Of a DNA stretch of 64,000 nt, positions 8,464 through 35,846 are shown in pieces. The DNA is taken from positions 22,931 to 86,930 of the forward strand of contig CAZKQK010000003.1 in assembly GCA_964554865.1 (NCBI GenBank), written 5' to 3'. This stretch comes from an uncultured Luteolibacter sp. (GTDB lineage Bacteria > Verrucomicrobiota > Verrucomicrobiia > Verrucomicrobiales > Akkermansiaceae). A program made the position numbers and the translations under genes. How positions within the stretch are numbered: the first letter of the stretch is position 1; each line of letters starts with the position of its first letter. The notes beneath the pieces were generated by a model. That model did not search any database and was not told where the DNA came from. It saw only the letters and a program-made list of their open reading frames with translations.

Positions 8464-8467
8464 CAAC

Positions 8468-9043: not shown

Positions 9044-9053
9044 CACCTGACGC

Positions 9054-10135: not shown

Positions 10136-10187
10136 CGCCCGTCTCCAATCCGGCTGGTTGTGGAGGCGGGCGTTCCTGTTTTTATTT
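10136..10187 (+). terminator. Putative intrinsic terminator after the scaffold gene
   Basis: Stem CGCCCGTCTCCA (10136-10147) / TGGAGGCGGGCG (10161-10172) followed by TTCCTGTTTTTATTT. Confidence 0.55.
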
Positions 10188-10216
10188 GACGTGCTCCCGT
10201 TAGCCGTGCTATCGCT
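10186..10216 (+). promoter_or_regulatory. Possible sigma70-type promoter for the capsid gene
   Basis: TTGACG, 18-nt spacer, TG-n-TATCGCT; the -10 is imperfect. Confidence 0.3.
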
Positions 10217-10362
10217 CGCCCCGTCACTGGACCACTTGAGCGAGGCCGGCCCCGAGTCGATCACCGCACAGCCAAGCCCGGAAGCCTTAAACCGCTCTCC
10301 GGGTCTTACGTTTTGAGACCCAGCAAGGGGAGGGAATCCACCAAAATTCACCACTCAAAATC

Positions 10363-11250: not shown

Positions 11251-11288
11251 TCCCTGATCCGAGCCCAACAAAAGAAAGAGCCAACATC

Positions 11289-11771: not shown

Positions 11772-11796
11772 ATCACCCCTAACCGGTTGGAATCCA

Positions 11797-11841
11797 GAGG
11801 GGGGAAGGGTGTTGTGTCCCCTTTCCCCCTCGCTCTTTTTT
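11797..11841 (+). terminator. Intrinsic terminator after the capsid genes
   Basis: GAGGGGGGAAGGG / CCCCTTTCCCCCTC stem followed by CTCTTTTTT. Confidence 0.7.
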
Positions 11842-11848
11842 CACGGTC

Positions 11849-12490
11849 ATGCCATCAGAAACCGACATCTCTAATCTGGCGCTCCAGCATCTCGGGGAAT
11901 CCCGCATAAACTCCATCGCGGATACCGGGGACAAGGTTTCCCGGACGTGCGCGGTGAATTTCGATCAGGCGCGCGACGAGGCGCTTCAGAGCGCCCGCTG
12001 GAGCTGCGCGAAGAAGCAGGCGGCGCTCTCGAAGCTGGCACAGGCACCGCTCTACAAGTGGCGTGCCGCCTATCAACTGCCGCCCGATTTCATCCGGCTG
12101 ATCGAGATCGAGGGGGAGGACGCCTGGCTGCCGAAGGAATACTTCGACCGTCAGGGCAACAAGCTGCTGATCGGCCGTGGCTGCGAATACGACGGCGACA
12201 TGCCCGATTCCCTGAACATCGAATACATCGCCCGCGTGGAGGACACGACGCTGTTCGACCCGCTGCTTGTCGAGTCGATGGCGATTCTGCTCGCCATGAA
12301 GTGCGCCCGCGCTCTGACCGGCTCGGACTCGAAACAGGCAGAGCTGCGCAAGGAATACGAACAGGTGGTCCTGCCGCGCGCGATGACGCTCAACGCCCAG
12401 CCGATCAATTCGGGAGTCAATCACCCCGTCCGTAAGATGATGATGAAATCATTCATGAACCGCGCCCGCCGCACCGGCACCTTCCGATGA
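11849..12490 (+). CDS. Tail tubular protein A / adaptor (T7 gp11-like)
   Basis: DISNLAL.HLG...I.S...W.CA.K..L....W..AYQLP.DF.RL pattern. Confidence 0.85.
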   Translation: MPSETDISNLALQHLGESRINSIADTGDKVSRTCAVNFDQARDEALQSARWSCAKKQAALSKLAQAPLYKWRAAYQLPPDFIRLIEIEGEDAWLPKEYFDRQGNKLLIGRGCEYDGDMPDSLNIEYIARVEDTTLFDPLLVESMAILLAMKCARALTGSDSKQAELRKEYEQVVLPRAMTLNAQPINSGVNHPVRKMMMKSFMNRARRTGTFR

Positions 12491-16475: not shown

Positions 16476-18575
16476 ATGGACCCACTACCCGGAAAAGTAC
16501 TCGTCAGGGCATTCAACGTCGGAGCGCAAGGCAGCATGCAGGCCGCGGGCGCGCCGTGGCAGGCGCTCGGAGGACTGGGCGAAATGATCGCCGCCACCGG
16601 CGAGAAGGGAATCGCCCTGCTCAACAAGCACAAGGAGCTTCAGATTCAGCGCGAGGCCGCAGACATGGAGGTTGAATTTGCGGGCATTCACGATGGATTC
16701 GAGCGGGAGATGCTGCAAAACCCGAACATGACGCCTGAGCAAGCAATAGCGGGTTGGGAGAAGCGCATGCAGAGCTTCCAGGCCAAGTATCAGCGTGAAG
16801 GAATGTCACCGCTGGAACAGGATGTTATTGGAACACGCTCGAAGGCACTGGCTCAACGGGGCGGGGCAAGCGTCGCCAAGAGTTCGCTGATCGCCGGAAT
16901 CCAGAATACTAAGCAGGCAGGTATCAACCTTGCCGAATTGGGAATTCAGACCGGAGACATGGAGAAGGTTGATAAGGGCCTTGCCGTCCTGAAAACCGTC
17001 ATGCCGGAAGCTGATGTGGAATCATTCCGGATGAAGGCGCAAAGCCGCATTGCAACGAATCGCATTGAATCGGAAATCATGGGCGACCCGCTCGGCATGC
17101 GCGATTCGCTCGATGATCCGGACTTCGTAAAAAACAATCCCGGCGTGGCCGTCGATGACGTGCCGCGCTTGCGCGAGATGGCGCGCACGGCCGCCCGTCG
17201 CAACGTGGGGGATGCCGTCGATGAGTTCGGCGACGATCTGGCCACCGGCAAGGTGAAGACCGCGGAGGACATCGACAGGCTCTATGGCGGCAAGGTCCCG
17301 CCTCGCATCGCCGAAGACATGAAGGGGCATCTGGCCAGGCGGTACGACACCGAAGAACGCGAGCGCATGAAAAGCCCCGAAGCGCAGATGCAGACGCTGG
17401 GACAGGCGACCGGCATCATCGCGGGGATCGGCGACACCAAGGACTTCGAAGCCGAATATTCGAAGGCATCGTTCCTGCTTGATTCAATGAAGGATAGCCC
17501 GGCCAAGCGTTATTATTCCGAGAAGCTGAGGGCGGCGAAAGACGGCAGGCAGGCCGAAGCGAAGTCGCAGACGGATCTTGCGATGAAGGCGCTCGAAGAC
17601 TTCGACAAGCGGGCGGTCGCGCGGCTTCCCGAGCCGATGAGCACTACCAAGGCGATCAACGACGGGTTCCTGCGCAACAAGGGGAAACTGAAGGCGCTCG
17701 GATTCACCGAAGACCAGATTGCCGAGATTTGGGCACCGGTGAAGCTCGCCAACGACAAGGAGCGGGACGCAACCGACAACGACCGCCGCAACCGCTTTGA
17801 AAAGCTATGGGAGTTCCGCAACGGCGAGAGCACCGCCGACGGCTACACGCGGGCGACGGCGCTCGCCATCGTCGGTCAGAAGCCAGCGATTGAAAACATT
17901 TCGCCGGAAAACGAGGATGCAGTGATCAGTGCGCGGATCGAGTTCGACCGCGAGGCCGGCGCGCGCAAGGCGAAGTTGCTGGAATGGATGGAAGTGAATC
18001 CGGACGCCAGCCGCGATCAGATCGAAAAGAAGCTCGGCGACATCACCGGCGAGCAGTTTCGCGGGAAACTCAAGGCAGGCATCCTCGAGACCCGTGCGAA
18101 TGATACCAAGGGGGCGAGTGAATCCACGTCGGCGGTCCCGGTCGGGAAAAACCTGGCCGAGATCGTGAAAAACTTTGAGGCGGGCGGCGCGCCGGGGGGA
18201 TTCCATGAGAAGGCGTATTGGGATTACGGACAATGGAGCATCGGCTACGGGACGAAAGCGAAGGAGGGGGAAAAGATTTCCAAGGCGGATGCCGAAAAAC
18301 GGCTGGCAACCGAACTGGCGATGCACCGCGGGCGGGTGGAAACCTACGCCGCCAAGGCCGGGCTGACGCTCAACGCGCACGAGGCGGATGCCCTGACGAG
18401 CTTTGATTTCAACACCGGGCGGATTGAGCAACTGCTGGCGAACGGACAGCGCAGCAAGGCGGAGATTGCCGCGGCGATGCTTCTTTATCGCAACGCCGGC
18501 GGCGAGCGCCTTCGCGGGCTGGAAAAGCGCCGGGCCGCGGAACAACAGCTTTTTCTTAACGGATACAAATCATGA
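16476..18575 (+). CDS. Ejection protein (gp15-like) with C-terminal GH24 lysozyme domain
   Basis: Helical body; C-terminal IVKNFE..AYWD.GQWSIGYG...DALTSF.FNTG...GLEKRR.AE.QLF is the T4L/GH24 signature. Confidence 0.8.
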   Translation: MDPLPGKVLVRAFNVGAQGSMQAAGAPWQALGGLGEMIAATGEKGIALLNKHKELQIQREAADMEVEFAGIHDGFEREMLQNPNMTPEQAIAGWEKRMQSFQAKYQREGMSPLEQDVIGTRSKALAQRGGASVAKSSLIAGIQNTKQAGINLAELGIQTGDMEKVDKGLAVLKTVMPEADVESFRMKAQSRIATNRIESEIMGDPLGMRDSLDDPDFVKNNPGVAVDDVPRLREMARTAARRNVGDAVDEFGDDLATGKVKTAEDIDRLYGGKVPPRIAEDMKGHLARRYDTEERERMKSPEAQMQTLGQATGIIAGIGDTKDFEAEYSKASFLLDSMKDSPAKRYYSEKLRAAKDGRQAEAKSQTDLAMKALEDFDKRAVARLPEPMSTTKAINDGFLRNKGKLKALGFTEDQIAEIWAPVKLANDKERDATDNDRRNRFEKLWEFRNGESTADGYTRATALAIVGQKPAIENISPENEDAVISARIEFDREAGARKAKLLEWMEVNPDASRDQIEKKLGDITGEQFRGKLKAGILETRANDTKGASESTSAVPVGKNLAEIVKNFEAGGAPGGFHEKAYWDYGQWSIGYGTKAKEGEKISKADAEKRLATELAMHRGRVETYAAKAGLTLNAHEADALTSFDFNTGRIEQLLANGQRSKAEIAAAMLLYRNAGGERLRGLEKRRAAEQQLFLNGYKS

Positions 18576-21500
18576 TCAACAACCTTTTGTCCGAGGGCAT
18601 TCCGCAATCTTCAGCCCCGCCGTCGCTGGTTCCCGTGTGGGGTGAAAACCTGTGGGAGGTGGAAGACCGCGAGGCCGACGCCATCAAGGCCGAGAGCTAC
18701 CGCCAGACGACCGACCGCATCGACGGGATCGCGCTCGATCCGGACTCGTATTTCAAGGGGCTGGATCTCGGGCCAGGGGATGCGGAGAAAACAAAGAGGC
18801 TCGTCATCAACGCTGCTTTTCTGGAACACGCATCCGGCGCGCCGGTCCCTGATGGGGAAACTGATCTCACGCGGGCGTTGATCCGCCAGCAAGTGGCACA
18901 CGAGCGCTTCGAAGGTCGCGGCGCGGACAGCGAGGAGGCATTCCATGCCGAGATCGTCAGGGAGGCCACAGGACGCAAATCCACCCGCGAGAATCTATCG
19001 GCTCTGTTCAAGAACGGCGCGAAGTCCGCGCTGATCGAATCGGCCGGCGAGGCGGCGAACCCTGAATTCGGTTTTGCCAAGTGGAAGGAGTCCGCCGCGG
19101 CGACTCCGGGCTATGATCCGACCAGCGAGCCGGAGTATTACGAGGCGTTCACGAAGGCCAAGAGCGCGGCCAAGGACGCCTGCCGGGAGTTCGCGCCGGA
19201 GCTGCAAGCGGTGTGGTCCGCGTTCACTGAAACCAAGAAAATCACAGCGGCTTCCGCGGCGGTGAATCCGATCACATTGCTGACCGGGAAATTCAGGGAG
19301 ACATCGGAAATTGAGGTGCCTGCCAAGTCCGTTGCGGACGAGGCGTGGAAGGCCTATGACGCCATGCCAGATGCAGAGGACCGCAAGCGGTTCATGGCAT
19401 CGCTGCACCTGTTGGCGGAGACGCTTCCCAAGGAGGAACAGGCGACGTTCTGGGGGAATCTATCCAAACAATCCGGTCGCGATCTTTCGGGGCTTGCCCG
19501 CGGACTCGGGGATTTTGTTGGAAGCAACACCGCACCATTCGCCGGGGCGTCCCGGTCGATGCGCGATCCGTTCACCCCGGACAGTCCGGAGCAAATCCGC
19601 CAATACGAAGAGCAGTCAAAGGGTGATGAGGAATTCCGCCGACAGGCCGATTTCCTGGCTGATGTGATGGCCATCCAGCAATCGACCTACGACCCGATGA
19701 AATATCTCGCGCCGGATGGGTCATGGACTCAGGCGTTTGAGAAGGGAGCCTATGCCGCCCCCGGAGCAATCGCTTCGTCGGCAATGGCTGCCATCCCCGG
19801 AATCGGCATGCCTGCTTTCTTCGCCACCGCCAAGGAAGGCGCGTATCAGAGCTATCGCCAGCAATTCGAGGCGGCCGGAATGAGCTACGAGGAGGCGCGG
19901 TACAAGGCGGACATCCTGTCAACGCCCGGGGCCGCGCTGGAAATGCTCGCCGAGCGGTTCGCCATCAAGGCGTTCGCCGGGAAGCTGCCGTTCTTCGAGA
20001 AGGCGATGGCGAGCGCAACCGCCCGCATCAACTCGCTCCCTGCGAGATTCGCCGCGAGGACCATCGCAGGATCGGTGGAAGAGGGGATGCTGGAGCAAGG
20101 GCAGGGGTTGATCTATCCGGTGCTTCAGAAACTCGCCGGAGGTCTCGGGATGGACGTTCCCGATCAGCAATGGCTGAATGGGAAAAACGGCATCCTTGAT
20201 GGTTTTTGGAAGGACAGCGCCTCGATGATCGTCACGATGCTGCCGCTCTCGATCTTCGGCGGGGCTCGTGGTGCCATCTCCGATTCCGCCAGGGTGTCGG
20301 CATTCCGCGAGGCGAGCGACAAACAGCTTCTCGCGCTCGGAATGACGCCGGAGGCGGTTTCAAATTTCCGCATGGCCGACAGGGTAGGGGTCGGAGCGGC
20401 AACCGTGGCGCTCGAACAGGGCGTGGCGACCATCGACCCGCAAAGCGAGGTGGCGAAGAAGGCCGTCGAAGAACTCAAGGTCGAGGTCGAGAAGGAAGCC
20501 GCCGCAGCCGAGGCCGCGCGGATAGCCGGGATCGTTCCGAGCTTCACCCGCGCGGATGCCGGGTGGACGGTTCACGACACCGAAACCGGGCAGGAACTCG
20601 CCACTTCACCGGACCTCCAGGGCGCATGGAAGATCGCGGGCAATCATTCCGACCTTGTGAAGCAATCCAATGCGCAGGAGACGGCGTTTTACGCATCCCT
20701 TCTGATGGCGACGGAACTCACCACGCCGAAAGGATCGAAAACCATCGCTTCGCCGTTCAGCGAAATGACAACAACAAAGAAGTCTCAGGCATCCCCCGAG
20801 GATGCACGCCGCGTCATGGCTCAGACCAAGGGGCGCGAGGCGGTCGAGGGTGGCGACCCCGGCATGGTGGACCTTATTTTCGGAGAGTCGGAAACGAAGT
20901 TCAACCAGCGAGCGCGGGAGACGACGAATCGGATTTACCTTGGCGGCACCGTGCTTACGGTTTTCCACGAAGAAGCACACGGCTATCTTGATGAGGCATG
21001 GGCGACCGGGCGCATGACCTACGACGAGACGCTTGAATCCATCCGGTTTTTCGAGAAAAGCCGCGAAGGCAAGACCGACCGAAAAGGGCGCGAGTTTCGG
21101 CTTTTGCCTGCCGACTTCGATTCGATGACTCCTTACGAGCAGAGGGTGAAAGTTCAAGAGGCGGTGTCGGAACTGATGGAAATCGAGATCATCCGCACTC
21201 GCGGAAAGCACAGGGGGATTCCTCGCTCTCTTGTCTCTCAGAACCTTTCCGCCGCCGCGAAGATGGTCGACGGGAAGGCCGCAAAGAAGTTCGCTTCGTT
21301 CCTGAATGTCTTCCGGGACTACTTCGGATTCGTCCTGTCTCGCGTCTGGCACATGAAGCAGGCCATCAAGGAAGGCAAGATCAAGGAGGCGGACTTGCAG
21401 GCGTTCACGGCGAAACTCTTCGGCCTGGATACCCAAGACCAGCATGAGGCGGCTGTTGTCGAGGAGATCGCGGCGATTGTTGAGGAGCCGACACCAGCGA

Positions 21501-24500
21501 AACCGGAGACGCCGAGGAAGACGGCAGCCAACCGCAAAAAGCCGCGCAAGATCGACACGCCAGCCAGACGGGAGGCGTTCCGACTCCTGAACTCTCAAAA
21601 CACAGAGTTGACGAGCATCAATAAAATCATCAGCGAAGGCGGAAAACTTCAGTCCCCTCCAACCGGAATGCTGAAGATTATCATGGGATTGGCGGGCGCT
21701 CGCAACCTCACGGAAAAGCAGATGGCGATGCGTCGCCGATGGGTTGATTACTCCGCATTCCAGCCGAAGAGCGCGTTCGGGAATGGATTCAACGGAAAGG
21801 TTGCGCAGGAGATTCACGGGATGCTCTTCGGCCAGGCAAAAAATGCGGCAACGCTTGACGATTGGGCGGGGATTCTTGGCGGCGTGACCAACGATGAAGC
21901 CATGATTGCAATCATGGGAGAGCTTGACCGGGTGGCACGCGGGCTCTCCAAGGAGAATGACCCACGCAACAGCAACCGCGAGTTCACCGATGCGGAGATT
22001 TCGGCGGAGATTTCAAAACCCGCCACTCCGAAGCAAACTGAGAATTTCAATGAGTCGAACAGCTTCGATTTTGGCCGTAACGAGATCAGGGTTGACGATT
22101 TGAAAGAGGGCGACGTGATCACAATCGACGGCGAGGAATTTACGGTTGAAGCGGTCGAGGATGGCGGAACGGTGGTCTTGCGCGATGGCGCTCGCTTCGG
22201 ACGGCAAGTCTTGGAATCAGGGGAAATCTTGTACATCGAGGATGTTTCTACCGAGATCGATCCCGATCTTCTGGAGATCGAAGCGGAATGGCTCGTTGAC
22301 AAATCGGCGGCTCAGGGCTACACGTCGATTGATGAGCACGCCGATGCAGACCCCGCAGGATTCGAGCAAATCGCCAGTGAGGCGGAAGCTTTCGGGCAAG
22401 GAGATTCACAGGCTGGCTCTCCTGCAAGCGGCGAGGAAGCTTCAGGCGAAGCGCAAGGCTTCTCGCTAGAGACACAGACCGGCGAGGACATCGACCGCGA
22501 GAACGCAGCCGCCAAGACCAAGGCGGAAATCCAGAAACGCGGGGACGCGCGGTTGACCGGATCGGCAGGCGATCTATCCGCCGACATGTTCGGCGAGGGG
22601 GAAACCCCGCTGTTCAACGAGCGGAGAGACACGCTAGGCGAAGGCGACCCGTTCTCGCTCGGTCCCGCCCGCATGGCCGACGCGCTCATTGCCAACGCCC
22701 GCCGCAGGATGAAAGACCCGCGGGCGAAGATGAAGATTTTCGAGAACATCGTGGCCCGCCTCGGAAAGCTCAACGCGCTGATCAACGCCACCGGCAACGC
22801 CTACAACTTCGACGCTTTCGGCAAACCCTTCGAAGGCCGGTTCAGCGATGAGAAAAGCAGCATCCTCAACGGTCTGGCGATCCTCGACGCGATCCTCGCC
22901 GCCGTGCCTCCGGACCTTCGCGGCCGAGTCGGCGGCTACACCCAGCTTGCCAAGCTCGACACCGACGAGAAGCGGCTCGACTACCTCAAGCGCCGGATGA
23001 AGACCGTGGAGCGCGTCGTCAACGAATGGCTCGGCAGGGAATACACGAAGGAGCTCGACAAGCTGCTGGAGCGGGCCAAGCCGAAACGGAAACCGGGCGA
23101 GAAACCGAAGGGCAAGGCGGGGGCCGACGTGCATGCGCTCTTCGACGTTCTCAGGCCGGCGAAGAACTGGAACCAGAATGAAGTGGACAAGCGCGTTGCC
23201 GGGCTGGAAGCGTCGATTCTTTCCGGCAACCTGACGCCCGAGGAGGAAGCCCACGCCACGCTCGAACTGAACCTTGTCGGGCTGGTCGGCAACTGGCGCG
23301 AGGCCGACGTTCCGCGCAAGGCCGCCGCACTGGCGAACGCAACCAGCGTGTTCGAAGCCGGATATGCCACCTTCAAGCTGGCGAAGCTGTTGGAGAAAGA
23401 AGACCGCGCCATTCGCCGCGAGAACCTGAAGGCCGACACCGGCAAGCAGGGCACCGCCGCGGAGCGGGACAAGCGCACGCTCGCCGACAACGGATTGAAA
23501 GCCGGATGGAGGGATTCGTTCCTGTCGCTGATCTCGTTCGAGCAGCTTTCCGAATACCTGTTTGGCCGCAATTCGAAGGAGGCGCTTCGCCTGGTGGACA
23601 TGGAGCGCGAGGCATCGGCCGCCAAGGAGGATGGCACTCAAGAAAAAATGGATGCGCTCGATGACATGTTCACGCAACTCGGCAAGGGCTCGCAACTCGA
23701 AGGCGAGAAGATCCGCTACGACCTCGCGCAGAAGTCACTAACCATCCAAGGGCGCACGCTCTCGCCGCTCGAAGCGATCACCGCAACTCTGATGTGGAGG
23801 CAGGAAGACGGCCGCCGCCACATGGAAGGCCACAAGGACGAGAACGCGCAGTTTGTCGGCCCCTGGCATTACGATCAATCATTCGTGGATGACATCGAAG
23901 CCGCGCTTTCCGATGATGCCAAGGCGGTTCGCTCTCATCTTTCCGCCGCCTATGGCGCGGAATGGGCGGTTCTCAATCCTATCTACAAGGCGTTGAACGG
24001 GATCAATCTGCCATCGAATCCGAATTACTCGCCGCTGACGGTGAAACCACAGCAGGCATCGGCCGGCCAGATGGTGGATCCAGTGACAGGAAGCACGATG
24101 AGCGGAGCGAGCGCCACGCCGGGAAGTCTGCGGACCCGCGGCAGCTCCATCGCCGAGCCGGAGTTTCGCGACGCGCTGCAAACCTACATCGCCCACACGA
24201 AGCAAATGCAGCATTGGATGGCCTACGCGCCGTTCATGACCGAGGCGGGGGCGATTCTCCGCAACCGGGAGCTCGGCAACAGCATCGAGGAGAAGGGCGG
24301 CAAGGAAGCTCTCGGGGTGCTTCGCTCGTGGCTCGACTACTTCCAGGCGGGAGGCGCCCGCGACGCTGCGGCGCATCTCGGATTGAACCAAACGATGAAC
24401 CGGATCTCCGGCCGCGCGGCATCCTCGATCCTGATCGGGCGCATGGGCGTGCTGGCCATCCAGGCGACACAGCTTGCCGCGGCTCTCGCCGAAATGCCGG

Positions 24501-25435
24501 TCGGCTCCTTCGCCCTGCGTTTCGGCAAGCTGATGACAGGGCAGCTCGGATGGGGCGCGGCGTTCCGCTCGGAATACATCCAGCGTCGGCTCACCCAGAT
24601 GCCGGTCGTGGTTCAGCAGGCGATGGACGGACTGAAGGCATCTCGGCCGAACCGGCTCAAGCATCACGTCCAGAAGCTCGGGCGGTTGATCTCCGGCGCT
24701 GACGCGCTGATGACCGCGGGAACCTTCGCCATCGTGCATGACTACCAGTTGAAGCAGGCGAAGGGCATGGGACTTTCCGGCTCGGAGGCCGAAGCCTACG
24801 CGATGAACGCCGCCGAACGGTCGGTGGATCGCATTGCCCAACCGACGCGGCCGGGAGCCCGCTCCCTTTACGAAAACACCGCAACCCATCCGGCAATGCG
24901 CGTGCTATGGTCGTTCGCTTCGGAAAGCCGCCAAAAGATCGCGCTCGGACTGTGGCGCGTGGCGGCAAAGGACCGGAGCCTTGGCGAGAAGGCGCGCGCT
25001 TTGGCCGTGACATGGGTTGTCGGCGGCATGGTGGCATCGATCATTCGAGCCGCGATGCGCGACATCCGCAGCGACGATGACGACGAGATTTTCGACGAAC
25101 GCAACTGGAGCCCGAAGCGCCTGCTTCTCTCATCTCTAACCGCGCCCTTGCAGGGGATTCCATTCCTTGGCGATGCAGCTGAAGGAGGAATCTACAGCGT
25201 GGCGGGCGAGTATCTGCCGGAAGGAAATCTGCTTTCCTCTCTGCCAAGGTCTCTGAAAGCAGCAACGCAAGTCCCGGAGTGGGATGACAAGAAGCCAGAC
25301 GAGATCATGCGCGACGTGGAAACCATTCTTAGCGGAGCCGCGTTCTTCAACGACAACCTGTCAGCCGCGTCCTCTCTTTCCCATCTCGCCAGCGACGTCT
25401 TCGGCATCACCCAGAACGTCACCAAAGACGAATGA
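18572..25435 (+). CDS. Large ejection protein (gp16-like, 2287 aa) with an HExxH motif
   Basis: Size and position after gp14/gp15-like genes; helical composition; VFHEEAHGY at about 20960-20986. Confidence 0.75.
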   Translation: MINNLLSEGIPQSSAPPSLVPVWGENLWEVEDREADAIKAESYRQTTDRIDGIALDPDSYFKGLDLGPGDAEKTKRLVINAAFLEHASGAPVPDGETDLTRALIRQQVAHERFEGRGADSEEAFHAEIVREATGRKSTRENLSALFKNGAKSALIESAGEAANPEFGFAKWKESAAATPGYDPTSEPEYYEAFTKAKSAAKDACREFAPELQAVWSAFTETKKITAASAAVNPITLLTGKFRETSEIEVPAKSVADEAWKAYDAMPDAEDRKRFMASLHLLAETLPKEEQATFWGNLSKQSGRDLSGLARGLGDFVGSNTAPFAGASRSMRDPFTPDSPEQIRQYEEQSKGDEEFRRQADFLADVMAIQQSTYDPMKYLAPDGSWTQAFEKGAYAAPGAIASSAMAAIPGIGMPAFFATAKEGAYQSYRQQFEAAGMSYEEARYKADILSTPGAALEMLAERFAIKAFAGKLPFFEKAMASATARINSLPARFAARTIAGSVEEGMLEQGQGLIYPVLQKLAGGLGMDVPDQQWLNGKNGILDGFWKDSASMIVTMLPLSIFGGARGAISDSARVSAFREASDKQLLALGMTPEAVSNFRMADRVGVGAATVALEQGVATIDPQSEVAKKAVEELKVEVEKEAAAAEAARIAGIVPSFTRADAGWTVHDTETGQELATSPDLQGAWKIAGNHSDLVKQSNAQETAFYASLLMATELTTPKGSKTIASPFSEMTTTKKSQASPEDARRVMAQTKGREAVEGGDPGMVDLIFGESETKFNQRARETTNRIYLGGTVLTVFHEEAHGYLDEAWATGRMTYDETLESIRFFEKSREGKTDRKGREFRLLPADFDSMTPYEQRVKVQEAVSELMEIEIIRTRGKHRGIPRSLVSQNLSAAAKMVDGKAAKKFASFLNVFRDYFGFVLSRVWHMKQAIKEGKIKEADLQAFTAKLFGLDTQDQHEAAVVEEIAAIVEEPTPAKPETPRKTAANRKKPRKIDTPARREAFRLLNSQNTELTSINKIISEGGKLQSPPTGMLKIIMGLAGARNLTEKQMAMRRRWVDYSAFQPKSAFGNGFNGKVAQEIHGMLFGQAKNAATLDDWAGILGGVTNDEAMIAIMGELDRVARGLSKENDPRNSNREFTDAEISAEISKPATPKQTENFNESNSFDFGRNEIRVDDLKEGDVITIDGEEFTVEAVEDGGTVVLRDGARFGRQVLESGEILYIEDVSTEIDPDLLEIEAEWLVDKSAAQGYTSIDEHADADPAGFEQIASEAEAFGQGDSQAGSPASGEEASGEAQGFSLETQTGEDIDRENAAAKTKAEIQKRGDARLTGSAGDLSADMFGEGETPLFNERRDTLGEGDPFSLGPARMADALIANARRRMKDPRAKMKIFENIVARLGKLNALINATGNAYNFDAFGKPFEGRFSDEKSSILNGLAILDAILAAVPPDLRGRVGGYTQLAKLDTDEKRLDYLKRRMKTVERVVNEWLGREYTKELDKLLERAKPKRKPGEKPKGKAGADVHALFDVLRPAKNWNQNEVDKRVAGLEASILSGNLTPEEEAHATLELNLVGLVGNWREADVPRKAAALANATSVFEAGYATFKLAKLLEKEDRAIRRENLKADTGKQGTAAERDKRTLADNGLKAGWRDSFLSLISFEQLSEYLFGRNSKEALRLVDMEREASAAKEDGTQEKMDALDDMFTQLGKGSQLEGEKIRYDLAQKSLTIQGRTLSPLEAITATLMWRQEDGRRHMEGHKDENAQFVGPWHYDQSFVDDIEAALSDDAKAVRSHLSAAYGAEWAVLNPIYKALNGINLPSNPNYSPLTVKPQQASAGQMVDPVTGSTMSGASATPGSLRTRGSSIAEPEFRDALQTYIAHTKQMQHWMAYAPFMTEAGAILRNRELGNSIEEKGGKEALGVLRSWLDYFQAGGARDAAAHLGLNQTMNRISGRAASSILIGRMGVLAIQATQLAAALAEMPVGSFALRFGKLMTGQLGWGAAFRSEYIQRRLTQMPVVVQQAMDGLKASRPNRLKHHVQKLGRLISGADALMTAGTFAIVHDYQLKQAKGMGLSGSEAEAYAMNAAERSVDRIAQPTRPGARSLYENTATHPAMRVLWSFASESRQKIALGLWRVAAKDRSLGEKARALAVTWVVGGMVASIIRAAMRDIRSDDDDEIFDERNWSPKRLLLSSLTAPLQGIPFLGDAAEGGIYSVAGEYLPEGNLLSSLPRSLKAATQVPEWDDKKPDEIMRDVETILSGAAFFNDNLSAASSLSHLASDVFGITQNVTKDE

Positions 25436-28292: not shown

Positions 28293-29492
28293 TCATCCCG
28301 CCGGGTTTAACGGTTTCATTGAGAAATACGGAAGCGATTGAATCGCCCGGTCGAGGGCCTCGTCGTGGTGGGTGTAATTGGCGTGAATCCCGGCGCTCTT
28401 GTGTCCGGTGAGCTTCTGGCGCACGTCGGCGGCAACGTCCGCATCGGCGAGCCACGAGGTGAAGGAATGCCGCAGGCTGTGGAACGAACGCCTCGCCTCG
28501 ATGCCTCCTGGCAGCGTCACCTTGTCCGGCACTCCGGCGGATTTCATGATTCGCTTGAAGGTGGTCGAGAGCGTCCCCGTGACTCGCTTTGAGAGGTTGG
28601 GGAAAAAATCCCCGTTCTTGCCTTCGATCCAGGCGAGACAGCCCGGCGAAAGCGGGATGACAATCGTGGAGGCGTTCTTGCGGCGCTTGGTTTTTTTCGG
28701 ACGGATCACCAGCCGCTTGTCCGCCACATGCCCGCTGCCGAGCTTCGCCACGTCTCCAAGCCTCAGTCCGGTGGAACCTCCGAAAAGGATCACGCCTTTC
28801 CATTCGTCGCTCGTCTGGGGATGCGAGATCATCCGCCGCACTTCCTCCGGTTCGAAGGGAGCGCGTTCGACTGAATCGTCTTCCGGCAGCGGCCTGATGC
28901 CTTGAGCCACGTTCGCCCGCGCCAGCCCGGCGGCAACCGCAGCGTGCAAGGCCCGGCGGAACGATCTGAGCGCGAGATTGACGGTGGAACCGCGCAGCCC
29001 GCCATCCTTCAGTTTCTGGATGGCCTTGTTGACCTGATCCACGGTCAAATCCCCCACCGGCGCGGATGACACCCGCTTGCCGAGCGCCCCGGTCATGTGG
29101 CGGTGCATGTCCATGTAAACTTCCGTGGTGGACAATTCGACATGGTGTTTCTGGTTGCGAATCCAGCCCATGACGTGATCGGAGAGGCTGACCACGCGGA
29201 AATCCGGATTCGCGTATTTGTGAAGCTTCATGATGAGATCCTGAGCGCGGGCGAGTGTCAGATTGCCTTCGGCGGCTTCCCTGGCCGCGGCTTCCACCAC
29301 GGCGGCAAAGGCTTTCGGCAGCCCTTTCGCCTTTCGGCGGATGTCCCTGCCCTCGCTCTCGAAATCCTCCGCGATCTTTTGAGCCTCGCGTTTTTTCGTA
29401 GCGCCTGTATTTTTCGAGAGTCGCTTGCCGTCCGGCCCGAAATATTTGGCATACCAAAATTCCGAATCCGGTCGCTTGTAAACGGTGGCCAT
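28293..29492 (-). CDS. Prophage tyrosine integrase
   Basis: TGLRLGD (R), FHSLRHSF (HxxR), LTGH and Y catalytic residues; start ATG 29492 (GTG 29510 is an alternative). Confidence 0.93.
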   Translation of the reverse strand: MATVYKRPDSEFWYAKYFGPDGKRLSKNTGATKKREAQKIAEDFESEGRDIRRKAKGLPKAFAAVVEAAAREAAEGNLTLARAQDLIMKLHKYANPDFRVVSLSDHVMGWIRNQKHHVELSTTEVYMDMHRHMTGALGKRVSSAPVGDLTVDQVNKAIQKLKDGGLRGSTVNLALRSFRRALHAAVAAGLARANVAQGIRPLPEDDSVERAPFEPEEVRRMISHPQTSDEWKGVILFGGSTGLRLGDVAKLGSGHVADKRLVIRPKKTKRRKNASTIVIPLSPGCLAWIEGKNGDFFPNLSKRVTGTLSTTFKRIMKSAGVPDKVTLPGGIEARRSFHSLRHSFTSWLADADVAADVRQKLTGHKSAGIHANYTHHDEALDRAIQSLPYFSMKPLNPAG

Positions 29493-29501
29493 GGGCGGAA
29501 A

Positions 29502-29543
29502 CGTAGACACTTGCCAGGTCCGGGAAAGTCCGAAGTGTCTACG
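29502..29543. promoter_or_regulatory. 11-bp perfect inverted repeat between att and the integrase start (arm-type or operator site)
   Basis: CGTAGACACTT (29502-29512) and AAGTGTCTACG (29533-29543), 20-bp spacer. Confidence 0.5.
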
Positions 29544-29581: not shown

Positions 29582-30862
29582 TTAGGTCGTTGGTTCGATC
29601 CCAACCGCCGGAGCCTTTTGACCCATTGCGCCAAGGTGCGACAGAAACCGCCTAATCAACTCAGACACAGTGTCTTGTGACGGCACTTCGGGAAAGGGGC
29701 TTGCGACAGGCACCGACTCCAAAACCCCCGAAACGACTAATTCGAGTGACGAATCCGGTGACCACTGGTTTCCGTTAGAGAGGCCCGGCAGCTTGGCAGC
29801 GTGTTCGTTCAGCGCGTAGGCGTCCTGATCTCCATAGACGGCGGCCAGAAGCTTCGGGTCGCTGTGACGCATCAGGCGCATGGCCACGGCGAACGGGATG
29901 CCCGATTCCTTGAGTCGTTGCGCATAGGAATGGCGGAAGCTGTGGAAATCCACGATCCTCCCGCGCTCATCCTTTTTCGCGATCCCTGCCGCCTTCTGAT
30001 CGCGGTGCAGGGCATCCATGCGATGCGGGACCTTCACAGCCTTTACGGAGGCTCCCGGATTGCCCGAGGACTCGCGGTGAGCAAGCAGCATTTCGCGCAG
30101 ATCCGAGGGCAGGGGAAGGGGCTGGTTCTCCTTGTTTTTCGTGTGTTCCTCGCGGCAGGTGACGAAGCCATTCACGAAATCGAAGTCCCCCCACAGCAAC
30201 GAGGCGATTTCTCCGCGCCGCAAGCCCGTGTAGTACGCGAGCGCGTAAACGATCCGGCGAGATGGAGTAGCGACACCTAGCAGGCGCTCGAATTCAGCAT
30301 GGGTGTAAGGACGTCGATTCCTTGCCTTGCGCCCCCTTGTCTCAGACTTGCCCACCGAGAGCAGGGGATTGGACGGGAGCCGTCCCGCCTTCACCAGCCA
30401 GTTGAGGAAGGCCCGGACGCACCCAAGGTATTCGTTGAGTGTCTTTGGAGCCTTGTTGCGGTTCTGACCCCGCCAGTTGTTGAAGGATTCCGGGCGGATA
30501 TCCGCCACCGTGGACCACGAGCATTCCCGCATCAGCACGCCCATGAATTTCTCCATGATGCCGCAATAATGCGGTTTGCGCCCCTTTCCACCCAGATCGA
30601 TCACCCATTCCCGCACCAATGTCTTGAGCGGAGCGGAAACGGTTTCCACTTGTCGCGCTGGAGCAGCCAGTCCTTGCCGCTCCAATTGCTTCTGGAGAAC
30701 GATGTCCGCCAGTTTGGACTGTGCAACCTGCTTTTCTGATACCCCCAACGGAACCTCGGCATCCCGCAAATCCCCATCCAGCCTGTAACGACCCGAGTAG
30801 GTTTTTGCGCGAACCCGCTTGCCATCGACCATCCGGCTGCGCTTGAAAACGTGCTGTTTCAT
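29582..30862 (-). CDS. Tyrosine integrase of the small element (integrated-form C-terminus runs through the att core)
   Basis: YTGLRRGE, FHSFRHSY, LMRHS and Y motifs; last residues APAVGIEPTT are the antisense of the tRNA 3' end. Confidence 0.93.
   Translation of the reverse strand: MKQHVFKRSRMVDGKRVRAKTYSGRYRLDGDLRDAEVPLGVSEKQVAQSKLADIVLQKQLERQGLAAPARQVETVSAPLKTLVREWVIDLGGKGRKPHYCGIMEKFMGVLMRECSWSTVADIRPESFNNWRGQNRNKAPKTLNEYLGCVRAFLNWLVKAGRLPSNPLLSVGKSETRGRKARNRRPYTHAEFERLLGVATPSRRIVYALAYYTGLRRGEIASLLWGDFDFVNGFVTCREEHTKNKENQPLPLPSDLREMLLAHRESSGNPGASVKAVKVPHRMDALHRDQKAAGIAKKDERGRIVDFHSFRHSYAQRLKESGIPFAVAMRLMRHSDPKLLAAVYGDQDAYALNEHAAKLPGLSNGNQWSPDSSLELVVSGVLESVPVASPFPEVPSQDTVSELIRRFLSHLGAMGQKAPAVGIEPTT
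29583..29615 (+). pseudogene. Displaced 3' fragment of a tRNA, probably tRNA-Asn; prophage attR and left att of the small element
   Basis: T-arm GTTGG-TTCGATC-CCAAC, acceptor 3' strand CGCCGGA, discriminator G, then CC; implies a 5'-TCCGGCG start typical of tRNA-Asn; no D or anticodon arm upstream. Confidence 0.8.
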
Positions 30863-30872
30863 TGTCTTGAGG

Positions 30873-31064
30873 TTATTGGATTCCGCCGAAAACGAGGATT
30901 TCTGAGAGAAGCAATCTCACACAGCCGCGGACTTTACGAATCGAAATCGATCCGTGGCTAATAGCTCGCTCCACCGTTCGAATGGAAACGCCGAGGATCC
31001 CGGCAGCTTCACGTTTTGAGATCAGACGATCTCCCGAGAATTCATTCACACATTGATTTTTCAT
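30873..31064 (-). CDS. Excisionase-like HTH (HTH_17/MerR-type) protein, 63 aa
   Basis: RLISKREAAGILGVSIRTVER.I..G.I.......VR; immediately upstream of int. Confidence 0.85.
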   Translation of the reverse strand: MKNQCVNEFSGDRLISKREAAGILGVSIRTVERAISHGSISIRKVRGCVRLLLSEILVFGGIQ

Positions 31065-31442
31065 TGCACATTCAGGTTCCGAAAGTGGCGCAGCCGTCAG
31101 GCCCGACATATTCCGGTGATTTAAGGCACGCCGCCAGAGCAACTCCGCCCCTGACATCCCGCCAAAGGCAACCGAGAGCCGCCCAAGGCGACCTGCCGAG
31201 TCTGTTGCCACCTAGTGTAATGTTTCCCCAAAATAGCACGGCGGCGAATTATGCCGGGGATTTTAGTAATGTAAACCGGCCGCAGCCGGGGGTGCGCACT
31301 ACGGGTGGGGGCAAATTGAAATCCCAACAACACCCGGGCGTCTGTGGGCGGATTCAACTCGGAACCGCCCGCAAGCGTCAAAATAAAAATTCAAAAAAAG
31401 CAGAATCCACCCCCTTTTCACGCTGACGCGACTCCGAACGCC

Positions 31443-31518
31443 CCACCGGTACGGCACGGATACCCCGAGGCTTCACGCTCGCCTTTTGGGGGCTCGCTTG
31501 CCTCTCGCCGTCCGGTGG
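31443..31518. other. Long branched hairpin, candidate single-strand origin (sso)
   Basis: CCACCGGTACGGC / GCCGTCCGGTGG outer stem with inner CCCC-GAGGC / GCCTT-TTGGGG stem, just past the rep stop. Confidence 0.4.
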
Positions 31519-31577
31519 CTTGCGACCCTCCCCGCGTGGCGGACCCTTCACCGCTCCGCGCAAAGGGCAATTTCCCG

Positions 31578-32990
31578 TTAGAACGGATTCCGCGCCAGCC
31601 AATTCCTCATCGCCATGCCCACGAAGCGCATGATTTGAAGCGCCGTCCGTGGGGATTGCGCGGAAATCAGTTTGATTCCCGAAAACCTCACGGACCGGAA
31701 CCGCCGAGCCTTGTTCCCATCCCGTTCCAAAATCTTCTTTTTCGGCTTTGGAAACAGCTTGGCCTTGCCCCACTTCAGCCCGTTCGCATGGGGAAACAGA
31801 ATGAGATAATCGAACGCGCGTTGCGTCGCGACAGGCAGGGAATCAAGATCGGCCAAGGATTGGAGGCGCAGCCCCCGAAGCCGATCACGCATTGAGAGCA
31901 AGCCGAACTGCGAAACCAGCGGCTCGCCCTTGGGATCCACAAGCCCCATGGCCTTTGCGGTGGAACGGTGTTTCGCCTCATCCGCCCGCTTCTGGCGCAG
32001 CTTGCGGGCGAGACGGTGCGCGAGGATCGCGGCCCGCTCCGGCATGGGCATTTCCGAACAGACGGAAAGCGGAACGGCCTTGCCGTTGACCTTGCCCCAC
32101 CAACGGCCGGGGATTTCCTCGAAAACGGTTTCCAGAGGCTTGCCCAGGTATTTCGCGAAGTAGCGGGCGATGTTGCCCCGGACCTTTTCCATGTTCCTCG
32201 CGTGAAGGTGCCAGCGCAGATGCTTGCCCCTTTCCTCACCATCCAGACCGACGCAAACCAAGGCGTTCCATTGCGCGGCGATCCAGCGTTGGAACGCGGA
32301 GCGGGTTTTCTCATCTTCCAGACCGTAAAGCACGAGATGATAATGCAGCGCCCCGCGCCGTTGAAGCTCCCGCTTCCACACGAATCCGACATCCGGGAAC
32401 AAACGGGATGCGGTCAGGCGGTTGCAGAGCTTCTTGAACGCAAGATGGACTATGGCCGAAGTGAGGAATCGCACTTCCCCCGGCAGGGTGAGTGCCATCG
32501 TATAAGCCGAAGCGTCCCGGTTGAGCTTCGCGAGATAGAGCATGAGATTGCGGCGGGATGCGTCCGAGAGCGTTAGAACCTTGCCCCGCACACCGCCTTG
32601 ATTGAGGCCCTGATCGCCCGCCATGGGACTGAGATTCGGAATGCCGGGAAAGATCGCCAACGAGGCATCTTTCCAGACTTGGAACAGGCGGGCGGGTGAC
32701 TTGGGGGAATCCGCGCGGGGGCATGCGTTCGGATTGCTGGTTTTATGCACTATAGACAAGCGTGCGGCCTCCCGTCCCGCAGGGCGGGGCGTCGCTGGCG
32801 CGACGCTTCCGCCTCCGCCGACCGTTCGGCGGCGCCCCAAGTCGAACAGTGGCAAATGGCCGCAGGACTCCCTGACAGCCCGATCCCCATGACGAGGAGC
32901 CAAGCCGACATCCGCCCGCGTGGCCCGATCGAAATATGAAAACCCCTCCGCCCCGGAACGCCCGGAGCGGGAAACGCTGTTTCTGGCCAT
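31578..32990 (-). CDS. HUH-superfamily rolling-circle replication initiator (Rep)
   Basis: Motif 1 YTMALTLP, motif 2 WKRELQRRGALHYHL, motif 3 RYFAKYLGK (YxxKY); true start either 32990 or 32624. Confidence 0.88.
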   Translation of the reverse strand: MARNSVSRSGRSGAEGFSYFDRATRADVGLAPRHGDRAVRESCGHLPLFDLGRRRTVGGGGSVAPATPRPAGREAARLSIVHKTSNPNACPRADSPKSPARLFQVWKDASLAIFPGIPNLSPMAGDQGLNQGGVRGKVLTLSDASRRNLMLYLAKLNRDASAYTMALTLPGEVRFLTSAIVHLAFKKLCNRLTASRLFPDVGFVWKRELQRRGALHYHLVLYGLEDEKTRSAFQRWIAAQWNALVCVGLDGEERGKHLRWHLHARNMEKVRGNIARYFAKYLGKPLETVFEEIPGRWWGKVNGKAVPLSVCSEMPMPERAAILAHRLARKLRQKRADEAKHRSTAKAMGLVDPKGEPLVSQFGLLSMRDRLRGLRLQSLADLDSLPVATQRAFDYLILFPHANGLKWGKAKLFPKPKKKILERDGNKARRFRSVRFSGIKLISAQSPRTALQIMRFVGMAMRNWLARNPF

Positions 32991-32993
32991 GCG

Positions 32994-33156
32994 TCAACGC
33001 CCTGCGGAGCCCTCCACGATTGCCAGAATCGCCACCTTGAGCGATCCATTCAAATTCGGCCATGCCTCGACCACCCGCAGCAGCAACCGCAAATCGGGTG
33101 ACGAATCCGGTGACCACCACTCAAGCAACCCGTTGATGTTCAACGGGGAAGCAGTG
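32994..33156 (-). other. Start-less in-frame C-terminal segment of the element integrase, separated by integration
   Basis: Reads (P)TASPLNINGLLEWWSPDSSPDLRLLLRVVEAWPNLNGSLKVAILAIVEGSAGR-stop in the int frame once 29592 and 33157 are joined. Confidence 0.75.
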
Positions 33157-33183
33157 GGTTCGATCCCAACCGCCGGAGCCTTT
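33157..33183 (+). repeat. Right att site of the small element (tRNA 3'-end duplication)
   Basis: Identical to 29592-29618. Confidence 0.92.
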
Positions 33184-33546: not shown

Positions 33547-34668
33547 TCACTTGCTCACGTTGAAGCGGAACTCGATGACATCGCCGTCCCTGACGACGTA
33601 TTCCTTGCCTTCGATGCGGAGCTTCCCGGCTTCCTTGCAGGCGTTTTTGGAGCCGAGGGAAACGAGGTCGTCGTAGTGGACGACTTCGGCGGCGATGAAG
33701 CCGCGTTCGAAATCGGTGTGGATGACGCCGGCGGCGGCGGGGGCCTTGTCGCCCTCGTGGATGGTCCAGGCGCGGGTTTCCTGGACGCCGGTGGTGAGGT
33801 AGGTGCGCAGGCCTAACAAGTGATAGACGGCGCGGATGAGGGCGGAGACGCCGGAGTCGGCCACGCCCATGTCGGCGAGAAACTCGGCGGCTTCCCCGGG
33901 TGACAGTTCGCTGAGTTCCTCCTCGATGCGCGCGGAGATGACGACGGCTTCCGAGCCGCTGTGTTCGGCGGCGAACTTGCGGACCTTGGCGACGAGCGGA
34001 TTGGAGTCCGGGTTTTCGGTGGTGGCGGCGATCTCGTCCTCGCTGACGTTGCAGGCGTAGATCGTGCGTTTCATCGAGAGCAGGAAGAAGTCGCGCACGA
34101 TGGCGGCGTCCTCATCGCCGAGCCGCAAGGTGAGCGCGGGTTTCCCCTGGTCGAGGTGCGGGAGGATGACATCGATGAGTTCGACCTCCTTCTTTGCCTC
34201 CTTGTCGCCGCCCTTGGCTTTCTTCTCGCGGGAAACGCGGCGTTTTTCGAGCGAGGCCATGTCGGCGAGGATGAGTTCGGCGTTGATGATCTCGATGTCG
34301 CGGACCGGATCGACCGAGCCGAGTTCGTGGATGATGTCGTCGTTTTCAAAACAACGGACCACCTGGACGATGGCGTCGGTTTCGCGGATGTTGGCGAGGA
34401 ACTGGTTGCCGAGGCCCGCGCCTTCGGAGGCTCCCTTGACGAGGCCTGCGATGTCCACGAACTCGATGGCGGTGGGGACGAGTTTCTGCGAGCCGGAGAT
34501 TTCCGAAAGCACGGCGAGCCGCGGATCGGGCACGGTGACGATGCCGACGTTGGGGTCGATGGTGCAGAAGGGATAGTTCGCCGCCTCCGCCTTGCGGGTG
34601 CGGGTGACGGCATTGAAGAGGGTGGATTTCCCGACGTTTGGCAGTCCTACGATTCCGGCCTTGAGCAT
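33547..34668 (-). CDS. ychF: Redox-regulated ATPase YchF
   Basis: [37 protein letters not shown]. Confidence 0.97.
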
Positions 34669-34814
34669 GGCGGCGGGAGGGTGGGGGGCGGATGCGGCCG
34701 CGACGAGAAAAATTTGCGCCGGAAGTTCCTGGCGCCGGATCCGGGGCGTTCGTGGGTGTGAAATCGGCGCTTCTCTCCGCAGCGGTGATGGTTTCCAATC
34801 CGCGGCGGCCCCGA

Positions 34815-35846
34815 ATGTCCGAGAACTTTTACCAGCAGACCACCTCCGCCCCGGCGACGGCATTTGACGTTTCGCTGCGGCCGCCGGCGTTTTCTGAATT
34901 CATCGGCCAGGAGAAGGTCAAGGAGCGCCTGCTGTTGATGCTGGAAGCCGCCCGGCAGCGCGGCGATGTGCTCGACCACGTCCTGCTTTCCGGGCCTCCG
35001 GGACTCGGGAAAACCACGCTGGCGAACCTGATTTCCCGTGCCGCAGGGACCCAGCTCCACACCACCTCCGGCCCGCAGATCGAGAAGGCTGGCGACCTCG
35101 CCGGCATCCTCACCAACATCCAGAAGGGCGACATCCTGTTCATCGATGAAATCCACCGGCTCCACCCGGCCATCGAGGAGTACTTGTATCCGGCGATGGA
35201 GGATTTCCGTCTGGATATCATCATCGATTCCGGGCCGTCCGCGCGTTCGATCCAGATCAACCTCCCGCGCTTCACGCTGGTGGGAGCCACCACCCGCTCC
35301 GGCATGCTCACCGCGCCGCTGCGGTCGCGTTTCGGGCTGGTCAACCGCCTGGATTATTACACGCACGACGAACTCGCGCTCATCATCGAGCGCTCGGCCG
35401 GACTGCTCGACGCGCCGATCGAACGCGGCGGCGCGCTGGAAATCGCCTCCCGCGCCCGCGGCACCCCGCGGGTGGCCAATGCCTTGTTGCGCTGGGTGCG
35501 CGACTACGCGCAGGTCCGCGGCTCGGGGCTGATCGATCAAGCCATCGCCGACGCCGCCCTGGCCATGATCGAGATCGATTCCCAGGGGCTCGATGAAATG
35601 GACAAGCGCCTGCTTGAGGTTCTCATCTACAAGTTCGGCGGCGGTCCGGTGGGGCTCAACTCGCTGGCAGTCGCGGTTGGCGAGGATGCCGCCACCATCG
35701 AGGAGGTTCACGAGCCCTTCCTCATCATGCAGGGCCACATCATGCGCACGCCCCGCGGCCGGATGGCGATGCCCTCCGCCTATCAGAAGATCGGCGCCCC
35801 CGAGCCGCCCCGCAGGCCGGAGGATCCTCAGGTGGAATTGTTCTGA
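34815..35846 (+). CDS. ruvB: Holliday junction branch migration ATPase RuvB
   Basis: [36 protein letters not shown]. Confidence 0.97.

Follow-up and report, generated by a model that had tools for sequence, protein, structure and literature searches.

What kind of element occupies the 3.57 kb between a prophage and the chromosome of an uncultured Luteolibacter sp., and how might so small a unit replicate and spread? We address this question in a 64,000-nucleotide stretch of contig CAZKQK010000003.1 (assembly GCA_964554865.1, positions 22,931 to 86,930), referred to below as the window, which belongs to a genome of 5.5 Mb that is 97.9% complete. The unit encodes a tyrosine integrase (Int), an excisionase-like (Xis-like) protein and a rolling-circle replication initiator (Rep), all on the minus strand, and all of these open reading frames (ORFs) are intact. 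We consider it probable that the unit is a minimal, non-conjugative integrative rolling-circle replicon, with a pSAM2-like rep-xis-int core without transfer genes, and that it is one of a family in Luteolibacter and Akkermansiaceae. A stripped-down integrative element with Int, an Xis-like protein and an HUH Rep had been proposed from the letters of the window alone (the sequence-only reading), and the gene matches and the att-bounded family described below uphold that proposal. The genes and attachment sites are as follows.

29582-30862, minus strand: tyrosine integrase gene int, integrated form, 426 aa (PF00589, E 1.3e-17; phrog_1, E 1.8e-43).
30873-31064, minus strand: gene for an Xis-like HTH_17 protein, 63 aa from the ATG at 31064 (weak profile matches and conserved position).
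31065-31577, minus strand: noncoding rep-xis spacer that contains an AT-rich tract (~31370-31400); the cargo slot in relatives.
31578-32990, minus strand: gene for the HUH rolling-circle Rep, long form, 470 aa (PF23343, REP_ORF2-G2P, E 3.6e-9, above the cut-off).
29589-29618, exact core 29592-29618, plus strand: int-side att copy, which is attL for the element and attR for the prophage (identity to the 3′ end of tRNA-Asn(GTT)).
33154-33183, plus strand: att copy on the rep side, attR (repeat, with the chromosomal flank next to it).

The two att copies form a direct repeat of 30 nt with 1 mismatch, 27 nt of which are exact, and lie 3565 bp apart. The 24-nt core of the repeat is present in exactly two copies in the window, compared with 0.00 expected from shuffles. 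The repeat resembles the T-arm and acceptor 3′ half of a tRNA. No tRNA was detected within the 64-kb window by ARAGORN or Rfam, and a whole-genome search identified a third copy of the core (C3:16213-16236) on the same contig, 6.7 kb before the window start. This third copy sits within an intact tRNA-Asn(GTT) gene (C3:16163-16237), outside the window and ~36 kb upstream of the element, and the direct repeat is the 3′ end of this tRNA; the left flank of the int-side att copy, TAGGTCGTT, matches both the tRNA and the prophage att. The 3565-bp unit with exact 27-bp repeats that the sequence-only reading described is thus confirmed in its repeats and their spacing, and its origin from tRNA-Asn is established.

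Rep shows the motifs AYTMALTLP, HYHLVLY and YFAKY, and the order of motif I, HUH and then YxxxY, together with an HUH fold, marks it as a two-tyrosine HUH initiator. In an alignment of 25 homologues, H216, H218, Y277, K280 and Y281 are invariant. The protein is composed of an N-terminal peptide (aa 1-55), a linker (aa 56-98), the HUH domain (aa ~99-315) and a helical C-terminal domain. In the AlphaFold2 model, the predicted local distance difference test score is >80 in most 10-residue blocks of aa 99-470, and residues 1-98 are disordered. The folds matched by the model are those of phage ORF2/G2P-type, GPA-type and microvirus Reps and of parvoviral nickase domains. A fold search of the PDB with the model gave weak HUH matches only (best E 7e-4), and a PDB sequence search with the Rep profile gave nothing useful. 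Profile matches of Rep to Phage_GPA and RepSA are also weak (RepSA PF20199, E 1.4e-3, 18.3 bits, cut-off 34). The HUH motifs 1-3 read earlier from the window, including YFAKY, are accordingly borne out by the PF23343 match, the invariant residues and the modelled fold.

The N-terminal peptide of Rep displays a third-position codon bias (3/3/16, 5/8/19 and 5/5/12 at positions 1/2/3), and no such bias is found in aa 56-98. These results suggest that the long Rep ORF is probably translated and that the linker has been shaped by DNA or RNA structure. The peptide (window 32826-32990) is far more conserved than the HUH core, with 8 of 55 amino acids differing from the relative L008, as opposed to 123 of 230 in the core. 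It ends in HLPLFD, which in our view resembles a beta-clamp-binding motif of the QLxLF type.

The linker of rep harbors a structure that is shared by the relatives.

32737-32832, minus strand: candidate double-strand origin within the rep linker (hairpins and a conserved block).

In the window element, hairpins are located at 32832-32815, 32806-32789 (GCGTCGC-GCCA-GCGACGC) and 32788-32776, followed by the block CTTGTCTATAGTGCATAAAACC at 32760-32739, the first 17 nt of which fit a family-wide degenerate pattern, C-TTGTCT-(A/T)-T-R-G-K-S-CATA. Common to the relatives is an invariant CTTGTCTAT block that comes after a covarying hairpin in the 5′ part of rep. Each of the 24 family members examined has the near-invariant block, always at the same distance upstream of the HUH domain, and the 5.5-Mb genome contains it only once. 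A GC-rich hairpin lies 28-38 nt upstream of it in 23 of the 23 aligned members. The stem of this hairpin varies with its pairing kept: the fourth pair occurs as G-C, C-G, T-A and A-T, and is Watson-Crick in 20/20 distinct hairpins. We assessed the covariation by finding hairpins in each sequence separately and swapping the 3′ arms between sequences as a control. The observed alignment has 116 of 120 Watson-Crick cells, whereas the swapped arms give a mean of 78 and a maximum of 97 (0/2000 shuffles reach the observed value). An RNAalifold prediction for this region from a plain MAFFT alignment gave a structure that was weak and out of register, and the per-sequence hairpins were used in its place. 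CTTG is also the start of the pC194/phiX174-type nick sequence. Rolling-circle double-strand origins are typically built from a binding hairpin with a conserved nick sequence beside it (PMC5714925), and we regard the hairpin and the CTTGTCTAT block as a candidate for such an origin. Beyond the linker, single-stranded DNA (ssDNA) folding of the two noncoding stretches was no better than that of shuffles (z -0.57 for the rep-xis spacer). Among the origin hairpins of L014, L023 and L029, some take the form CGCGC-GAA-GCGCG and contain d(GCGAAGC), a DNA mini-hairpin of unusual stability that has been described from phage origins of replication.

The attachment site itself lies inside int, and part of the gene is found at the far end of the element.

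32994-33182, minus strand: Int "tail" of ~50 codons, the displaced 3′ end of int (in-frame in silico junction and conservation).

The integrated int ORF, in which the Int motifs RGE, HSFRHS and Y can be read off, stops 2 codons beyond the att core. When attP is joined in silico, the int ORF spans it and encodes 477 aa in the circle, compared with 426 aa in the integrated form, so that integration alters the C-terminus of Int. Across the elements, Int is 474-488 aa in the circular form and usually 422-430 aa when integrated (465 and 503 aa in the two tRNA-Thr elements). The int frame runs through the core into the tail in 9/9 intact elements joined in silico, as well as in L051, with cores derived from tRNA-Asn, Thr, Gln and Val. 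The contig of L004 contains only part of int; there, reading leads from the same tRNA-Asn core into the tail in another frame, the one in use at the end of the related L005b Int. The tail carries a conserved motif that ends ..LRLLLRVVEAWPxLNGSLKxAILAIVEGS, and its substitutions relative to close relatives favor the third codon position (2/0/6, 1/0/5 and 2/1/12 at positions 1/2/3), which marks it as a protein under purifying selection. Neither the tail nor the N-terminal peptide of Rep has a match in Pfam. The sequence-only reading was right in counting three credible genes on the minus strand, and missed this displaced tail. An attP within the integrase gene and a new 3′ end upon integration have been described for Mx8 intP/intX (PMC6070905) and for the SSV1 type, and a survey of islands (Islander) lists the Mx8-type arrangement with SSV as an exception (PMC4383910). 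Mx8, in contrast, is a 49-kb tailed phage, and the present element has a short tail, which stops 3 nt ahead of rep and is conserved in Int proteins of several lineages. Splitting of the SSV1 int inactivates it, whereas the catalytic domain of the element Int stays whole.

The stop codon of the tail (TGA, 32996-32994) lies 3 nt before the ATG of rep. Since attP is within int, excision would restore the 477-aa Int with its ~50-aa tail and bring the rep start to 3 nt behind the int stop. This raises the tentative possibility, which we hold with less than even confidence, of a recombination-gated replicon, in which only the excised circle encodes full-length Int and places rep in the transcription and translation unit of xis and int. 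If so, DNA topology and not a repressor would decide on replication, which would explain the silence of a regulator-free element of three genes when integrated, and rep expression gated in this way would be a neat switch that needs no regulator. At the junction (window 32988-32996, minus strand), the frame of the Int tail continues through a single TGA and one CGC codon to the rep ATG, and the CGTTGACGCATGGCC junction of tail stop and rep start is also found in L004, L007, L008 and L020. It could allow translational coupling or read-through.

Upstream of int, the Xis-like protein matches HTH_17 (E 1.3e-4), TIGR01764 "excise" (E 1.9e-4) and phrog_66 (E 6e-4), all weakly, and its ORF stays open up to 31211. 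We take the 63-aa protein to be Xis-like because 8 elements share its MKN start and coding block immediately upstream of int. Further candidate sites are the following.

31248-31275, minus strand: sigma-70-like promoter match TTTACA-16-CATAAT upstream of xis, the sole such match on the minus strand of the element.
29739-29765, no strand assigned: candidate arm-type Int site, copy 1, within the 3′ end of int and ~120 nt from the core (27-nt repeat D2).
33091-33117, no strand assigned: candidate arm-type Int site, copy 2, 37 nt inside the rep-side att copy.

The TTTACA hexamer recurs at the same place upstream of xis in L007, L023 and L005. The same repeat of 26-27 nt is found on both sides of attP in the window element, L005, L007, L015 and L017, and was not found in L004, which has a different Int type; the pair is a good candidate for the arm-type sites of Int.

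The following cycle can be proposed for the minimal replicon. Int, aided by the HTH_17 protein, would recombine the two tRNA-Asn-derived att copies into a 3,565-bp circle. Rep would be made mainly from this circle, driven by the promoter upstream of xis, and the position of the sole promoter-like match on the coding strand fits this weakly. With its HUH motif and two tyrosines, Rep would then bind the hairpin in its own 5′ linker and nick at or near the CTTGTCTAT block, the proposed substrate being the hairpin at 32806-32789 plus CTTGTCTATAGTG, and the circle would be copied by rolling-circle replication. Re-insertion by Int at the 3′ end of tRNA-Asn would replace the Int tail by two residues. 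Relatives would take up cargo genes, of restriction type or other, in the rep-xis interval, and the copy in the window is without cargo. That the element is excised and replicates as a rolling circle, where it is nicked, how its expression is switched and by what route it might pass between cells are inferences from the sequence.

Several observations weigh against this proposal. The assignment of xis depends on profile matches of which those to HTH_17 and TIGR01764 are below the curated cut-offs, and the candidate promoter is no more than a fit to the consensus, while little is known of promoters in this phylum. Neither a regulator gene nor a transfer function was found in the element, which leaves its persistence and spread unexplained. 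The small metagenome contigs L004, L050, L051 and L052 were without the terminal overlap expected of circular molecules; L051 runs from 8 nt before one att core to the other core, and L004 from an att core to a point inside int, which would fit either a circle or an integrated form. The hairpins could act on the mRNA instead, through translation control with the invariant TTG as an internal start, and in the window element GGGAGG lies 8 nt upstream of this TTG, as would fit such a start. Conservation of the frame across att could in part reflect the equal length of tRNA 3′ ends and not selection, an explanation that is disfavored by L004, which reaches the tail in a different frame.

Is the element one of a kind? 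A word-indexed search identified 60 close homologues of Rep, and an exhaustive search ~1900 clusters at E <1e-3. Every context that we read has a common plan, consisting of att, usually a short ORF (the tail), rep, 0-5 kb of cargo, the HTH_17 gene, int and a tRNA gene. The 3′ end of the tRNA is repeated (26-31 nt) just upstream of rep in 10 loci, and the att-bounded units are of 3365, 4460, 4565, 4678, 4853, 5231, 5324, 6364 and 8111 bp, plus a 2394-bp remnant; L007, at 3.4 kb, is a second minimal member. The sequence-only reading had suggested looking for triads of int, xis and HUH rep at tRNA genes, and such triads make up a family with target sites in tRNA-Asn, Thr, Gln and Val. It had also allowed that homologues might prove to be remnants of larger known elements such as inoviruses; what we found are whole att-bounded units, and in these elements no capsid, Zot, relaxase, type IV secretion system (T4SS) or terminase gene was found. 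Likewise, its statement that the window unit has no capsid, Zot, relaxase/T4SS, primase or cargo genes is borne out; the 9 alternative ORFs of the unit have no Pfam match. The named records with relatives are Luteolibacter, Akkermansiaceae and metagenome-assembled genomes (MAGs) of Verrucomicrobiota. Of 401 genomes sampled from the host's family, 20 have the Rep clade; among 401 sampled across the phylum, the genome of the window is the only one that has it. The family appears to be confined so far to Luteolibacter and Akkermansiaceae, and its patchy distribution is typical of a mobile element. Identities of Int and of Rep are uncoupled between elements, which suggests shuffling of modules.

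Cargo is carried in the rep-xis slot of many relatives and is often of restriction type. It includes a Dcm-type methylase with a neighbouring gene, an MmeI-like enzyme, Mrr, PIN, HIRAN and a D12 methylase, as well as several secreted proteins of no assigned family. In elements of another Int type, a conserved accessory protein of ~180-240 aa (..LPLSTxLFPYLxxASRRMSLRxISxWL..) without a Pfam match is encoded just upstream of xis (L004 2524-3210, the L005 10302-10721 region and L006 12131-12667), and may be a regulator that is absent from the window element. Two members are arranged in tandem at one tRNA-Asn in a Luteolibacter MAG (L005/L012; JAWLDG010000011.1, 180-12250), one of 6.7 kb with a PIN-domain gene and one of 5.3 kb with its int broken by frameshifts.

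Degraded relatives of this kind (a 2.4-kb remnant in L025, and L005b with its frameshifted int) bear on whether the window element is itself an immobile relic, that is, a once-mobile island now fixed, decaying and of no present function. It is single-copy in its genome and has neither regulator nor cargo, as a relic might. We nevertheless hold this to be highly improbable, given that its three ORFs are intact, that the att repeats are identical at 27/27 positions, that Rep, the tail and the N-terminal peptide are under purifying selection relative to the relatives, and that the GC content of the element (0.597) is still below that of the genome (0.628).

How does this replicon compare with known systems? 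The sequence-only reading had named it a candidate new class, which is an overstatement, as the pSAM2 core (PMC2440964), streptococcal integrative and mobilisable elements (IMEs; PMC5704250) and satellites with about three core genes, the phage-inducible chromosomal minimalist islands (PICMI; PMC10803314), all precede it. Like pSAM2, the prototype here of the actinomycete integrative and conjugative elements, it encodes a tyrosine Int and an Xis or Xis-like protein, integrates in a tRNA 3′ end, keeps the order rep-xis-int beside attP (an operon in pSAM2) and has a Rep that would copy the excised circle by rolling-circle replication (PMC2440964). It differs from pSAM2 in that its Rep belongs to the ORF2/G2P family (best match PF23343) and not to RepSA, in that it is without an FtsK-like Tra, spread genes and the regulators KorSA, Pra and Pif (no FtsK-like Tra or spread genes were found in the cargo of the relatives either), in its size of 3.6 kb compared with 10.9 kb, in its Verrucomicrobiota host, and in having attP inside int. 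With the streptococcal IMEs, some of which are described with only an integrase and a rolling-circle Rep-like protein, it shares the form of a small site-specific island with its own integration and excision module, a backbone of integrase and HUH or Rep_trans initiator-like protein, and variable cargo (PMC5704250). The Reps of those IMEs, however, are of the Rep_trans, Rep_2 and PHA00330 types, their targets are mostly 3′ ends of protein genes, and their hosts have conjugative helpers with TcpA, whereas no T4SS was found in the 15 host genomes of the present element. By its Rep family and its lack of transfer genes, the element is a member of neither the pSAM2 nor the streptococcal IME family. 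We found no description of such a family of Verrucomicrobiota mini-elements in the papers searched, and little seems to have been written on mobile DNA in this phylum. The element, with its three genes and an attP inside int, sets a minimum for autonomous replicons of the integrative type. The family offers a compact natural cassette of 3.4-3.6 kb for integration, excision and replication, with att sites at four tRNAs and a cargo slot, which could seed genetic tools for Luteolibacter and Akkermansiaceae.

The spread of such an element is a puzzle, its hosts showing no sign of a conjugation system or of a helper phage. The HUH protein could double as a relaxase, with the nicked strand passed to the conjugative pore of another element, which would make the unit an IME; this role has been suggested for the Rep-like relaxases of streptococcal IMEs. 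Rolling-circle Reps can act as relaxases (pC194 and pUB110 mobilised by ICEBs1; MobT), many IMEs have only Int and such a protein (PMC5704250, PMC5714925), and the candidate nick region could equally be an origin of transfer. Yet neither VirB4 nor a VirD4/TraG homologue was found in any of the 15 Rep-positive genomes, including that of the window, most of them >90% complete; the VirD4 search was positive in 5 control genomes, and most of the 15 are MAGs, which can miss plasmids. This absence weighs against mobilisation by conjugation. No coupling-protein gene was seen in any element, and the motif order and family of Rep are those of phage and plasmid initiators. We thus regard an IME as very unlikely.

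The next candidate vehicle is the prophage beside the replicon, which the sequence-only reading had suggested as its helper. The features around the element are as follows.

28293-29510, minus strand: integrase gene of the neighbouring prophage, not part of the element (PF00589, E 4.3e-14).
33547-34863, minus strand: chromosomal ychF-like GTPase gene, beyond the rep-side att copy.

The order at the locus is tRNA-Asn, the 36.3-kb prophage, att, the 3.57-kb element, att and the chromosome with the ychF-like gene. The prophage encodes TerL, a portal, a major head protein, a 1021-aa tail protein, an endolysin and its own integrase, and is plausibly a podovirus. If the element were a satellite of a tailed phage, either this one or an unseen virulent phage, it would be excised on infection, and its rolling-circle multimers would be packaged in helper capsids as in PICMI. 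Its position directly beside a complete podovirus-like prophage, its lack of transfer genes and the defence-type cargo of its relatives, as in many satellites, are what such a satellite might show, and PICMI provide the precedent that three core genes can be enough and that the helper can be a virulent phage, which leaves no trace in host genomes (PMC10803314). PICMI are likewise a minimal set of excision and replication genes without capsid-remodelling genes, and defence cargo is a further point in common with the relatives. They differ in lying next to fis and in their shown helper dependence and concatemer packaging, and are not reported to use an HUH Rep. The integrases of prophage and element are unrelated beyond the family level (25% identity, in the catalytic domain only), and the two have only chance 15-19-mers of DNA in common, with no common pac/cos or operator apparent. 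The relatives of the element sit between host genes, and a relative of the prophage portal, although present in 100 of 401 family genomes, is in 0/19 other Rep-positive genomes. No terS, capsid-redirecting or interference gene was found in the element, and rolling-circle Reps normally yield unit-length ssDNA circles. Dependence on the neighbouring podovirus, and the co-occurrence with podoviral prophages by which it might have been recognised, are thus not supported, and we consider a satellite of any tailed phage unlikely.

The adjacency is instead accounted for by the use of the same tRNA-Asn attB by both. Prophage and element are, by their junctions, stacked in this one attB, and the prophage appears to be an independent user of it. 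Either order of integration, prophage first or element first, yields the observed junctions. Tandem islands at a single tRNA gene are a known pattern, with 125 tandems among 3919 islands in Islander (PMC4383910). Within the prophage, an ORF of 2287 aa without a PHROG match (window 18572-25435, plus strand) probably encodes an internal or ejection protein, and is preceded by a gene for a 699-aa protein with a C-terminal lysozyme-like domain. A second, distant portal homologue (33% identity) is located at C90:6739-8295 in the same genome, which points to one or more additional tailed prophages there.

Could the ssDNA circles produced by Rep leave the cell by way of a filamentous phage? In such an inovirus-type satellite, similar to RS1-phi and TLC-phi of Vibrio cholerae, they would be exported by the coat and pI proteins of a helper. 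Rep belongs to the ORF2/G2P (gpII-like) family, an inovirus-like prophage is present in the same genome (contig C45), and RS1 and TLC set the precedent of small, chromosomally integrated elements with a gpII-like Rep and, as here, no morphogenesis genes (PMC3545932). These, however, rely on host XerCD at dif and have RstR-type repressors and identified helper inoviruses, whereas the window element has its own tyrosine integrase and Xis-like protein, a tRNA-Asn target and no demonstrated helper. Zot was found in 1 of 15 Rep-positive genomes, which is the window's own, and in 0/14 others. The Rep of the C45 inovirus is 37% identical to that of the element over 62 aa only, the C45 inovirus region is without the CTTGTCTAT block, and no ssDNA-binding protein or packaging-signal candidate was identified for the element. 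A filamentous satellite is therefore an improbable account, and the integrative rolling-circle replicon without transfer genes is the reading that we favor. The C45 prophage itself (~8000-13200; locus L049 ~3500-8700) is of low GC content and comprises several small ORFs, a Zot/pI-like ATPase of 244 aa, a secreted pIII-sized protein of 440 aa and a PF23343 Rep of 387 aa, which is unrelated in sequence to the element Rep beyond the family level.

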